A stretch of 64,000 nt of DNA from an uncultured Gemmatimonadales bacterium (GTDB lineage Bacteria; Gemmatimonadota; Gemmatimonadetes; Gemmatimonadales; GWC2-71-9), in assembly GCA_963821525.1 (NCBI GenBank), contig CAWGED010000014.1:81960-145959 (forward strand), written 5' to 3'. How positions within the stretch are numbered: position 1 is the first letter of the stretch; each line of letters opens with the position of its first letter. The notes under the pieces are model-generated. The model saw nothing but the letters and a program-made list of their open reading frames with translations, made no database searches and was not told the DNA's origin. Made by a program: the position numbers and the translations under genes. Below, one piece after another: positions 11,575-21,422 of this stretch.

Positions 11575-11660
11575 GGTTAGCCGTTAGCAATTAGCCGGTA
11601 GCTGTTAGCTGTTACGGTCAGGAGGGTGGCATCACCCGACGGCTAACAGCTAACGGCCTA
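11575..11660. repeat. Palindromic heptamer repeat (GCTGTTA)n ... (TAACAGC)n
   Basis: Same family as 472; between convergent genes. Confidence 0.85.
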
Positions 11661-11731
11661 CGGCCCACTCTGTTTAATCACAAAGACAGACCGAGGTGAC
11701 CCGCGGCAAGGGATCATCCGTGGCAGCGCGA

Positions 11732-12725
11732 TCAGTCCGATTGAGGCGCCCGGACAATGCAGCGGAAGCCGACGTGACAGGTGGAGGTGTCGATCGGCTC
11801 GGGATAGCGCGCCGCAGGCCGGTAGCGGCGACAATAGTTGGGCGCGCAGAGATGGGATCCCCCTTTCAGCACCTTGCGGGGGATGCGGATGTTGGGCTGG
11901 CAGAGGTCGTAGCTCTCCTCCTCGCGCGGCCCTCTCGGATTCAGGGGAATACAGCAGGCCTTGGGCGCATCTCCCGGATGGCGAGGCACGTACCAGTCGG
12001 TGGTCCACTCCCAGACGTTTGCCGATCATGTCGTAGAGCCCGTAGCCGTTGGCCGGGAAGGACCCGACCGGCGAGGTGCTCTCGAACCCGTCCTCGACCA
12101 GGTTGCGCCAGGGGAATTCGCCCTGCCAGGTGTTGGCCATGAATCTCCCGCCCGGGAGGAACTCCTCGCCCCAGGCGAAGGCGGCCCCGTCCAGTCCGCC
12201 CCGGGCCGCGAACTCCCATTCGGCTTCCGTCGGAAGCTGCTTCCCTTCCCATCGAGCGAAGGCTTCGGCGTCGGTGTAGGCCACGTGGACCACCGGATAA
12301 TCCGGCCCGGCGATGCTGGTCTCCGGCCCATAGGGATGGCGCCAGTCCGCCGCCTTCATGAACTGCCACCAGTTGGTGTAGTCTCGTAGGTCCACTCTCC
12401 CAGGCGGCATGGTGAAGACGAGCGAGCCGGCGTAGAGCATTTCCGGCTTGGCGCCCGGGTAGTGAGCGGGATCGGGGGGAATCTCCGCGAAAGTCTGATG
12501 CCCGGTTGCGGCAACGAATTTTTCGAACCGCCCGTTGGTGGTCGGGTAGCGGTCGATCCAGAACCCGGCAACCGTCACGCGGTGGACCGGACGCTCCTCA
12601 GGGTAATGATCTTGGGAACCCATGCGGAAAGTCCCGCCTGGGATCCACACCATGTCGGGAAAGGGTGGATCTCCGGGCGGGAGGGAAGATGCGGTGAGCG
12701 GACTCGATGCAGTCATGAACCTCAA
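11732..12725 (-). CDS. Formylglycine-generating enzyme (SUMF1/FGE), frameshift near 12020
   Basis: IPGGTFRMGS, LPTEAEWEFAARGG, NGYGLYDM; C-terminal KGGSHLCAPNYCRRYRPAAR in a second frame. Confidence 0.92.
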
Positions 12726-13018
12726 TCCAGAGCCGGGGACTGGCTGTTCAGTCTACGTCCCCTGCAATCGGGGTCAAGGGAATGCTACCAAGGGGAGGGA
12801 GGGTACGACTAAAGGGTAATCTTCTATTGGTACGACCGTGCCATATCTTGAAACAGACCGAAGAGCGGACGCGCAATGAGTGGGTAACGCGGCAGCCGGG
12901 TCCTCCCAAACAAGCAAGGAAGGGTTTTCTCCTTTCGCTACGCCGACGCAGCGAGCGCCAGCGTGGGCTGACGCTTGTACGGAATGGCCAGACCAAGAGC
13001 GACATGAACGAGGGTAGC

Positions 13019-14340
13019 ATGGCGGACGAGCTGGGCACCATTGCTCAAGAGGCGTACATCTACCTGTACCCTCTGGTCACGATGGATTTGACGCGCCGAC
13101 AGCTCACTAACATCGAGTTCGGCCGGGTGCCGGGTCGTGGTCCGATCAACACCTTCGCCCACATGCGCACCTTCCCCGATGGGGACTTTCGCGATGTGTT
13201 CGGCCGAATTTCGATACCCTGTATTCCACCGCCTGGCTCGACGTGAGCCGGGAGCCGATGGTAATCTCCGCCCCGGAGGCTCAAGGCCGGTATTATCTGC
13301 TGGCGATGCTCGACATGTGGACCGACGTGTTCGCGGTCCCGGGGAAGCGCACGACCGGAACCTGTCCCGGCCACTGGGCGATCGTCGGGCCGGGCTGGAC
13401 CCGCCAGCTGGCTGGTGACCTGGAGCGCATCACCTCGCCGACGCCATTTGTCTGGATGATTGGGCGGACCCAGACCAACGGCCCGGAAGACTACCCAGCG
13501 GTGAAGGCGGTCCAGGACGGCTTCGTCATCACGCCGCTTTCGCAGTGGGGAAGAGAACGGCACCCGCTCAACGGCTCGATAGATCCTACGGTGGACATGG
13601 TGACGCCGCCGCTCGAGCAGATAAACAAGATGCCGCCGCTACAGTTCTTCGCCTACGCGGCCGAGCTGCTAAAGATCAATCCACCCCACTTCACCGATCA
13701 GCCAATCATTGCCCGGATGAAGCGCCTCGGATTGGCGGTGGGAAGGAGCTTCGATACCGAGAAGGCGGATCCAGCAATCCGTCGGGCTCTCGAGCAGGGA
13801 GCGGCGGATGGATTCGAGGCCATGCAGGCGGCAGACCCGGCGATGGGGCGCCTGGTCAATGGCTGGCAGATCAACACGACAACGATCGGAGTGTACGGCA
13901 CCAACTACCTGCAGCGCGCCATCATCGCGATGGGCGGTCTCGGCGCCGACCTGCCGGAAGACACGGTTTGTCCGTTGTTGCTCACCGACAGCGACGGGAA
14001 ACCCATCGATGGCAGCAATCGATACCTGCTCCACTTCGACAAGAGGGATCTCCCTCCAGTCGATGCCTTCTGGTCGCTGACCCTGTATGACCAGAACGGC
14101 TTTCAGGTCCACAATTCGATCAATCGCTTCGCGATCGGCGACCGGGACGATCTCAAGTACAACCACGACGGGTCGCTCGACCTGCACATTCAGCCGGAGA
14201 ATCCGGGGAAGGACCAGGAGCGGAACTGGCTGCCCTCGCCACCGAAAGGCGCGCTGGGAATAACGATGCGACTCTATTCCCCTCGCCCGGAGGTCATAGA
14301 TGGCCGCTGGGCGCCGCCGGCGGTGAAACGCGTCGGGTAA
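13019..14340 (+). CDS. DUF1254/DUF1214 domain protein, frameshift near 13200
   Basis: EAYIYLYPLV, GRYYLLAMLDMWTDVFA, PPVDAFWSLTLY, NWLPSP. Confidence 0.9.
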
Positions 14341-19755: not shown

Positions 19756-20229
19756 CTACGAAGGTCGGGCGGTGGCGGTGCGCGCGGCCAGAGCGCTGGG
19801 CAACCCCACACCCACCAGGTGGATCAGCACACCATTGATGATGACGGGAAGGGAACGGTGCTGCGACGCCACCGCCGAGAGCGGCAGCACGATCTGGGTC
19901 ATGATGAGATAGACCAGCAGACCGTAGAGTGGCCCATACAGAAAGGGTCGCTGGACCAGCGCCGGAAAGCGGCGGCTTACGAGGTAGAAGGTGGTGACGA
20001 TCGAGGAGGCGATGAACACATGAAGGATGAGGCCCAGCAGCGCGGTGCCCATGCCACCCTGAAAGGCGGCCTTTCCGAGGAGTCCCGAGGCGATGCTCTG
20101 GAAGATCAGGATCGGCTTGACACCCCGGAGGCCGAAGAAGATCACCGCATCGAGACCATCGAGAAAAGCAACGGTGAGAGCGCCGAAGAGCAGCGCCTTG
20201 GCGGGGGAGAGAGGGTGGTCGGTGGGCAT
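19756..20229 (-). CDS. Four-TM conserved membrane protein
   Basis: FQSIASGLLG, GLILHVFIA, YG...YLIMTQIVLPLS. Confidence 0.75.
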   Translation of the reverse strand: MPTDHPLSPAKALLFGALTVAFLDGLDAVIFFGLRGVKPILIFQSIASGLLGKAAFQGGMGTALLGLILHVFIASSIVTTFYLVSRRFPALVQRPFLYGPLYGLLVYLIMTQIVLPLSAVASQHRSLPVIINGVLIHLVGVGLPSALAARTATARPS

Positions 20230-20235
20230 GGTACT

Positions 20236-20270
20236 CGGGGAACAGGGAACACAGGGAACAGGGAACGGGG
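20236..20270. repeat. Heptamer repeat (GGGAACA)n
   Basis: About 4 copies just past the merB stop; reverse-complement family at 55743. Confidence 0.75.
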
Positions 20271-20294
20271 AGCCGGTCGCCCGGCGGTGCGGAG

Positions 20295-20972
20295 TTACCC
20301 AAACGTGTCCGCCTGCGGGTCCCAAAAGTCGCCGTGCAGGCCGATGCCTTCGAAGATGCTCCGTATCTCGGTTGGCGCGGGTCGTCGAGATTCTGCGCGG
20401 AGGCGGCTGGAGTACCAGGTCACCGCCATTTGCCACAATTGGTCCATTCGCACCGAAGGCCGGCGCGGCGTCGCTCGGCTCGAGCACCACTGGTCGATGA
20501 GCTCTTCCGACCGGAAGAAGAGCATAGTGCTTCAGGTGAAGACGATGTCCTGCCACCACTTCGCGGCTGGCACCTCACAATGGAACAACCAGTCTGAAGA
20601 CTCGGGCCCATCGAGCCCGACCGTGAGGCGGAGTGTTTCTTTCGACTGTTCGCAACGGGAGACCACCTCCGCCGGACGATTGAGCGCGGCGGGAATGCCG
20701 AAGGCGTCCCAGGCGCAATTCGCATAGTAGCTCACCCCTGCGGCCGTCACCCGATGTTGAGTGGGTACTCCGGAGAACGGAGGCGCCATGCGGATGGTTT
20801 CGCCGTCCGGCTCCAGTACCAGCAGGCGGCTCCGAGCCAGTCTCCCGTACGACTCCCGAACCAGGTCAACCGATTCTCCTACGTGTTTGGCCACCGCGTT
20901 AATACCGGGAGGCTGGCCTCGTTCGGCCGTGCTCCAGTAGATCACGAGCTTCACCTGAGTGTCGAGATCCAC
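20295..20972 (-). CDS. merB: Organomercurial lyase MerB-like protein, probable selenoprotein (in-frame UGA at 20532-20534)
   Basis: ORFs 20532-20990 and 20295-20525 share one frame: YANCAWDAFG (Cys96/Asp99 equivalents), SRCEQS, WWQDIVFT-UGA-STMLFFRSEE (Cys159 equivalent). GTG start at 20972 follows GGAGGA. Confidence 0.88.
20497..20525 (-). promoter_or_regulatory. Putative bacterial SECIS hairpin
   Basis: AUGCUCUUCUUCC-GGUC-GGAAGAGCUCAU; 19 nt lie between the UGA and the GGUC loop. Confidence 0.75.
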
Positions 20973-21005
20973 GGTTCCTCCACCTCTCACTGAATCAGGG
21001 AGCGA

Positions 21006-21422
21006 TCAGGTCTTTCGCTGGGCGAGCCACTGATCTACGCTGGCAGGACCGGGGCCCCACGCCGCAAAGAGCAACCAGATGAACGAGAAGAGCATCACCA
21101 TCTCGCCGCCGTTTTGCCACCACCACATTTTGCCGCTCCCACCCGTGTGGATCCAGAAGTAGGCGACCGCCATCTCTCCCGAGGCGATGAACGCGAGCGG
21201 ACGAGTAAACAATCCCAGAATCAATCCCAATCCGCACACGGTTTCGATGATGCCTGCCGCCCCGAAGCGGGTCGCCAGGTCGGCGGTGCCGTGATTGGGT
21301 CCGAATCCACCGAACCAGCCGAAAAGTTTGGAAGATCCGTGGGTGAAATAGACGAGTCCCGCCGCGATGCGAAGCGCCGCATGAGCGAACGAGCGGAACT
21401 GTAGTTGCGATTCTTCGGCCAC
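21006..21422 (-). CDS. DoxX family membrane protein
   Basis: LRIAAG...HGSSKLFG, GLFTRPLAFIASGEMAVAY, NGGE. Confidence 0.9.
   Translation of the reverse strand: MAEESQLQFRSFAHAALRIAAGLVYFTHGSSKLFGWFGGFGPNHGTADLATRFGAAGIIETVCGLGLILGLFTRPLAFIASGEMAVAYFWIHTGGSGKMWWWQNGGEMVMLFSFIWLLFAAWGPGPASVDQWLAQRKT

Follow-up and report, generated by a model that had tools for sequence, protein, structure and literature searches.

A predicted selenocysteine-containing protein of the MerB fold, encoded across an in-frame UGA in an uncultured Gemmatimonadales bacterium

The locus and its reading frame

We analysed a stretch of 64,000 nucleotides (the window) of contig CAWGED010000014.1, positions 81,960-145,959 of the forward strand, in assembly GCA_963821525.1 of an uncultured Gemmatimonadales bacterium. 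All positions given below are those of the window unless a contig or locus is named. The features of the locus are as follows.

21006..21422, minus strand: DoxX-family gene, upstream and co-oriented; this context is shared with close relatives only
20977..20981, minus strand: Shine-Dalgarno-like GGAGG, 4 nt ahead of the GTG at 20972
20295..20972, minus strand: full gene, GTG to TAA, 225 aa with the TGA read as selenocysteine
20715..20717, minus strand: Cys86, equivalent to Cys96 of MerB, invariant in 63/63 aligned sequences
20706..20708, minus strand: Asp89, equivalent to Asp99 of MerB (proton donor), invariant in 63/63
20652..20654, minus strand: Cys107, corresponding to the structural Cys117 of MerB, not invariant across the family
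20532..20534, minus strand: in-frame TGA, codon 147, predicted selenocysteine, aligned with Cys159 of MerB
20501..20523, minus strand: bacterial SECIS hairpin inside the coding frame, with core stem 20518-20503 and GGUC apical loop 20512-20509
19756..20229, minus strand: membrane protein gene, downstream and co-oriented, with a weak DUF1440 match below cut-off

Translation of the minus strand from 20972 to 20295 ran in the same frame throughout and was interrupted once, by a TGA at 20534-20532 (codon 147 of 225). Around this codon (within 20520-20545) the minus strand reads ACC TGA AGC ACT ATG CTC, and read-through gives the context KWWQDIVFT-U-STMLFFRSEE, with the motif YANCAWDA upstream of the UGA. 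The two listed open reading frames, 20532-20990 and 20295-20525, translate in one shared frame. An earlier reading of this DNA (the sequence-only reading) had described them as in-frame and parted by TGA-AGC-ACT, with YANCAWDA in the N-terminal part, and sequence and translation agree. Its length of 225 amino acids for the read-through protein also holds, since the GGAGG lies 4 nt before the GTG and the starts of the homologues coincide with the GTG at 20972 in the alignment of read-through sequences.

The many frameshift errors of the assembly would favour the view that the TGA is a sequencing error or marks a nonsense pseudogene. However, DNA contigs from two independent public runs (different studies) span the TGA and keep it, with 3 and 12 differences that all lie elsewhere; these are contigs rather than raw reads, and they indicate that the codon is not a sequencing error. 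Two RNA contig sets partly cover the gene in small shares (0.17 and 0.08), one 330-nt contig spanning the UGA; such contigs cannot demonstrate transcription. A promoter and terminator scan at the gene gave a signal no better than chance.

Conservation of the UGA codon

The codon was TGA in 81 out of 81 loci (our own plus 80 genomic relatives, the best of 128 that were confirmed), two of which carry one further stop. The true terminal stops of 80 of the read-through frames were, by contrast, mixed (TGA 41, TAA 20, TAG 19), indicating that the conserved TGA is not due to chance. Among the best 120 protein matches, 116 end at the Thr immediately before the UGA. Two of the four longer matches have W or G at the site, probably as gene calls under other codes, and two are apparently frameshifted there. 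NCBI records of metagenome-assembled genomes carry the 146-aa truncated form, some of them named organomercurial lyase. The segment 20295..20972 is one real gene split into two open reading frames by gene callers. Carrier records came from Gemmatimonadota, Acidobacteriota, Chloroflexota, Eisenbacteria, Verrucomicrobia, Calditrichota and further groups. The closest relatives belong to the Gemmatimonadales, in keeping with the host phylum that had been proposed (Gemmatimonadota).

Both halves of the gene are under purifying selection: dN/dS against close relatives was 0.07-0.25 in 7 pairs upstream of the UGA and 0.06-0.24 in 6 pairs downstream (one saturated). This selection, the presence of the same TGA across many phyla and its retention in independent short-read contigs all speak against a pseudogene or an error, a reading that the conserved TGA and the independent contigs effectively refute and to which we assign a negligible probability.

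At greater distance, the best 150 of 4004 representatives comprised 57 with Cys at the site, 72 ending just before it, 8 with another residue and 13 partial sequences. Cys also occupies the codon-147 column in loci L117, L119, L128 and L129. Alignment to MerB homologues, which the sequence-only reading had proposed as a check, gave a column of Cys or UGA (Cys in 57/150 distant representatives, TGA at every one of the 81 loci). Cys-type relatives of 26-29% identity were found in plasmid records of cultured betaproteobacteria, and the one annotated neighbourhood of such a plasmid relative contained no mer gene. A tree built by quick search from 138 N-terminal halves left 77 of its 135 inner branches open and showed Cys forms interspersed with truncated ones, with 12 changes of form, of which at least two were forced by well-supported branches; the tree is too weak for ordering these events.

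Three further observations concern the family. In one Cys-type branch the Asp99 equivalent is replaced by Cys (24 of the best 150 distant representatives, P0136, P0150, P0186 and others; also L119, L128 and L129), and this three-Cys site probably has a different activity. Loci L065, L077 and L110 each have an additional in-frame stop, which may mark them as pseudogenes or reflect errors in the sequence. Genome G146 harbours two TGA-bearing copies of the gene (C84 and C40) together with a MerA over cut-off.

A SECIS hairpin follows the UGA

A GGUC loop closed by a stem begins 19 nt after the UGA, a hairpin that the sequence-only reading had not mentioned. The six stem pairs hold in 100, 103, 103, 103, 102 and 98 of 103 distinct stop-bearing loci, a set that leaves out two Cys-type loci; the loop is GGTC in 89 of the 103 and AGTC in 9. 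Synonymous sites are nearly frozen (CGG in 91/103, TCG in 98/103, TTC in 102/103). The hairpin is of modest stability alone, with folding z-scores from -1.5 to -2.4, and the lowest-energy fold draws a larger loop than the GGUC model. Covariation was not significant: one double change was seen among 12 chosen sequences, and 51 of 500 shuffles reached it. The GGUC hairpin is absent from the Cys-type locus L117.

The loop presumably resembles that of E. coli fdhF; in contrast to an fdhF-type SECIS, the hairpin here encodes the FFRSE strand of the protein. It was also compared directly with the hairpin of the host's own formate dehydrogenase gene. The available part of the consensus description of bacterial SECIS elements (PMC13188914) fits as well: a G-G opening a short apical loop, a stem of 4-16 bp, a distance to the UGA of 19 nt (16-37 allowed) and an energy of -7.5 to -10.7 kcal/mol. 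Genome-wide scans for a TGA followed by a hairpin returned 73 and 58 candidates, mostly noise, among them formate dehydrogenase. The hairpin word occurs once more, on contig C19, but there the frame that reads FFRSE contains no TGA, and we dismissed this copy as a chance occurrence.

The UGA could alternatively be a true stop after which translation restarts at the ATG two codons on, yielding a naturally split two-subunit protein. An ATG indeed occupies codon +3 in 90 of the 103 loci, and the downstream frame is under purifying selection. However, the ATG is missing in the other 13/103 loci and is preceded by a Shine-Dalgarno-like word in only 3/81. Moreover, TAA or TAG never stands at this site (81/81 TGA, against 41/80 among true stops), the UGA occupies the position of a catalytic Cys, and a split protein would leave both the SECIS and the link to selA described below unexplained. 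We regard it as highly improbable.

Selenocysteine machinery in the host and in other carriers

The host has an intact selA (532 bits) and a tRNA-Sec with anticodon TCA. In four comparison genomes the tRNA-Sec model gave scores close to its cut-off, as it did in controls. Its selB is in three frameshifted pieces (G000:C5:974880-976691, locus L003), and no selD over cut-off was detected in the 81% complete assembly (best score 62 bits, cut-off 125). The search for sel genes recommended by the sequence-only reading was therefore answered in part, selA and tRNA-Sec being found, selB broken and selD missing. A second translational GTPase gene (C5:507611-508727) and flavoprotein reductase genes are also split, pointing to many indel errors in the assembly.

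Taken at face value, the low selD score and the broken selB would mean a selenoprotein gene by descent that is no longer decoded in this host. Against this, selA is intact, tRNA-Sec is present and the UGA of formate dehydrogenase has been kept. Three close relatives all have selD, and also selA, and the 13-16 kb around their selD has no long match in the host assembly, which fits a gap. Since the assembly is incomplete, other housekeeping-type genes are split alike and the selD region of the relatives is missing, the broken selB and missing selD are probably assembly faults, and a loss of decoding appears very unlikely.

The alpha subunit of the host formate dehydrogenase (region G000:C19:312871-314836; L127:2870-4780, minus strand) has an in-frame TGA in its UHxP motif and a GGUC-loop hairpin, and the part scanned reached 658 bits, short of the cut-off of 666. 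This gene is a second predicted selenoprotein gene of the genome.

In 50 carrier genomes (covering 50 of the 80 loci), selA was found in 50/50, 49 of them over cut-off, and selD in 49/50. A sample of 251 genomes of the phylum contained 45 that match the family profile: 29 with a full-length TGA form, 2 with a full-length Cys form and 14 with weaker or partial matches. The 29 TGA carriers were all selA-positive: every one belongs to the 202 genomes with selA, and the 49 selA-negative genomes included none (hypergeometric 0.001, a value that is overstated as kin are not independent). As selA is common in the phylum (202/251), its co-occurrence is weak evidence at this level. Of the two full-length Cys forms, one is in G251, which lacks selA, and the other in G187, which has it. 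These counts include three genomes flagged as unpublished (G012, G105 and G205), on which the conclusions do not hinge.

Taken together, these sequence comparisons make it almost certain that this is a selenoprotein gene whose UGA is read as Sec147. The observations named beforehand as arguing against this, namely TGC or TGT at the codon in reads, homologues that never have UGA, or a genome without selAB and tRNA-Sec, were not what we found.

MerB fold and active site

The read-through protein scored 100.8 bits against Pfam MerB (PF03243, gathering cut-off 27), over model positions 1-125 of 126. The two frames taken separately gave 63.5 bits (positions 1-80) and 17.5 bits (positions 88-125). 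An AlphaFold2 model, with Cys substituted for Sec, had a pLDDT of 96.0 and a pTM of 0.92, and showed the following parts.

Residues about 1-65: N-terminal winged helix, part of the MerB fold
Residues about 66-193: catalytic domain, part of the MerB fold
Residues about 194-225: conserved C-terminal extension, outside the coverage of MerB structures

Foldseek returned 11 matches at E values of 0.001 or below, every one of them MerB or MerB2. The top match was MerB2 5c17 (E 2.8e-11, rmsd 3.2 over 187 residues). In VIA-align, Z was 18.8 against 5c17 and about 15 against MerB, the aligned part of the model running from residue 1 to about 197. Identity to MerB was 17-20%. We also considered that the winged helix might belong to a DNA-binding regulator; matches to LexA and DtxR reached Z 9.7 at most and covered residues 1-66 only, while the MerB matches span the same region and the whole domain, which speaks against such a regulator.

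The register of the active site was obtained by aligning a profile of 63 read-through sequences with solved MerB structures, the C160S structure fixing it. The alignment pairs C86 with Cys96, D89 with Asp99, C107 with Cys117 and residue 147 with Cys159 of MerB. This placed the UGA at the second catalytic Cys, as had been claimed. C86, D89 and position 147 do not vary among the 63 sequences, nor do W88, W139 and R190. The description of the product as one 225-aa Cys/Sec protein with a MerB fold is backed by alignment, fold, SECIS and selenocysteine machinery.

Gene neighbourhood

In the window, the gene is surrounded by genes for DoxX, DinB, a membrane protein and an NADP oxidoreductase. Clustering of 2543 flanking ORFs from 80 loci revealed no neighbourhood conservation beyond close kin, and the genes next to the homologues were small and of assorted kinds (DinB, methyltransferases, GNAT, cupin). 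Of 155 neighbours picked from 40 loci, 146 from 38 loci were scanned with Pfam, which detected no mer or sao genes, and no linkage to merA, merR or merT was seen in the window neighbourhood or among these 146. MerA scored over cut-off in 4 of 77 carrier entries, a count made on carriers alone with no baseline and in which at least three pairs of entries are the same genome. In the host assembly (81% complete), neither a MerA over cut-off nor hgcA was found.

At locus L028 (3049-5816) the homologue is flanked by an ArsR-family regulator and a flavin oxidoreductase, and at L022 a multicopper oxidase and a ZIP-like transporter adjoin it. These are isolated hints of a metal or metalloid context, and are not conserved. 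A short imperfect tandem repeat lies between the gene and its downstream neighbour (20236-20271); it is probably a dispersed repeat, as very-high-depth contigs were found for it in all four public runs. Elsewhere in the window (11658-14340), the ORF 11658-12725, which we take from its motifs to be formylglycine-enzyme-like, and the ORF pair 12782-13246 and 13243-14340 appear frameshifted.

Proposed activity

Selenolates bind mercury more strongly than thiolates do, and at neutral pH they are ionised. We propose that SelB carrying Sec-tRNA(Sec) would bind the GGUC hairpin 19 nt past the UGA and direct insertion of Sec at position 147; the resulting protein would have 225 residues, the MerB fold and a Cys86/Asp89/Sec147 site. 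In this site the soft metal of R-Hg+ or of a similar organometal would be held by Cys86 and by the selenolate of Sec147, and protonation of the carbon by Asp89 would release RH. As the selenolate is ionised, the proton would have to come via Asp89 and water. The gene would serve detoxification on its own, with no mer operon around it, the freed metal staying bound or passing to cellular thiols and not to MerA.

Because the triad is intact, the same chemistry as in MerB is the likeliest activity, and we lean towards MerB-type protonolysis of a metal(loid)-carbon bond by the predicted Cys/Asp/Sec site, if by no great measure. Product release without MerA is a real difficulty for a lyase. The protein may instead be a genuine selenoprotein with a role other than organometal cleavage, its Cys/Asp/Sec site binding or buffering soft metals (Hg, Cu, Ag), or cleaving or reducing some different substrate, for example organo-sulfur and organo-selenium compounds or the thiol adducts of electrophiles. 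The lack of mer context among assorted small neighbours, the Cys found in place of the Asp99 equivalent in 24/150 distant representatives, and the invariant W88, W139 and R190 with the C-terminal extension, which may shape a different pocket, all point this way, and a similar doubt is raised for SaoL in the accessible text of Haft and Gwadz (bioRxiv 10.1101/2022.07.06.499078). However, the equivalents of the C96/D99/C159 triad are invariant in all 63 close members, and merA is also missing from about half of merB genomes (906/1795) in the part available of a published census (PMC8261052), so that the absence of MerA is weak evidence. Given the proton source and the product-release difficulty, a role as metal sink or on another substrate keeps a substantial, though minority, share of the probability. 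The name 'organomercurial lyase', used in the sequence-only reading, reflects fold and motif; the scores lie below the MerB cut-offs, and MerA is usually lacking.

That such proteins form a widespread MerA-independent, selenium-dependent lyase for organomercury (methylmercury) in soil and sediment bacteria seems unlikely. If it were true, merB surveys would miss this lyase by requiring Cys159 and seeing the truncated protein alone, a protein cut before that residue presumably not being counted by such a screen. The selenolate would then capture trace methylmercury and retain the mercury in place of passing it to MerA, tying methylmercury breakdown to the selenium supply of soils. Should the protein act on organomercurials, more bacteria would count as known demethylators, and the role of MerB without MerA would become testable through a natural Cys-to-Sec variant. 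Whatever its substrate, the family adds a large, uncatalogued subfamily, broad and mis-annotated, to the bacterial selenoproteome.

Comparison with SaoL, MerB and selenoprotein catalogues

A Sec at the Cys159 position of the MerB fold has already been published for SaoL (bioRxiv 10.1101/2022.07.06.499078), and the sequence-only reading had correctly pointed to this lyase-like selenoprotein of anaerobes. The sections available of that preprint, which covers 15,511 species, place SaoL in 45 of 52 loci, all of them in anaerobes. SaoL is the sole entry for the MerB fold among the 119 selenoprotein families in Table 1 of a 2026 review, and the part available of a 2022 review gives the same SaoL accession (PMC9312934). 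The deep-Sep supplement contains two MerB rows, both with a CU motif (PMC12013277), and the main texts of BSepDB (PMC13326102) and SelCysML (PMC13745706), whose supplements may differ, list no MerB. A search of the literature outside subscription journals returned no paper on a Thr-Sec MerB-like subfamily. This subfamily is therefore absent from the catalogues examined, as far as their accessible parts go, the Sec-MerB fold itself being known through SaoL.

SaoL (NF040728) and the present protein share the MerB fold, the Cys96 and Asp99 equivalents, Sec at the Cys159 equivalent and truncation at the UGA in databases. They differ in several respects. The score against NF040728 is 38.3 for a cut-off of 140; Thr precedes the UGA in 81/81 loci here, in contrast to the Cys-Sec (CU) of SaoL; and the nine-gene SAO locus is absent from the window and from the neighbours of other loci. 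No match to saoB or saoC was obtained elsewhere in the incomplete host genome, where the positive controls gave none either. The hosts differ too, the UGA family occurring in 29/251 genomes of the host phylum and in records from Acidobacteriota, Chloroflexota, Eisenbacteria, Verrucomicrobia and Calditrichota. Score, Thr-Sec, lack of an SAO locus and hosts together rule out SaoL.

MerB itself binds R-Hg+ through Cys96 and Cys159 and uses Asp99 to protonate the carbon, according to the part available of PMC10114901, which agrees with the residues on which the sequence-only reading had relied. The accessible part of the merB census, which screened for Cys159, reports one Gemmatimonadetes and no Acidobacteria genome with MerB (PMC8261052). 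Of the canonical signature used there (Cys96/Asp99/Cys117/Cys159), the present protein has C86, D89 and C107, with UGA/Sec at 159. On the two NCBIfam MerB models (NF033555 and NF009710) it scored 49.1 for a cut-off of 200 and 57.4 for a cut-off of 193; both NCBIfam scores, the UGA at 159 and the lack of mer linkage rule out a canonical MerB. Sec in place of Cys159, the absence of Cys160, the C-terminal extension and the lack of a mer operon set it apart from MerB (EC 4.99.1.2; PDB 3F0O, 3F2F and 1S6L; MerB2 5C17), with which it shares the positions of the catalytic triad and the fold (Z 15-19 over 180-187 residues). By this fold and by its score above the gathering cut-off, the protein is a member of the Pfam MerB superfamily.
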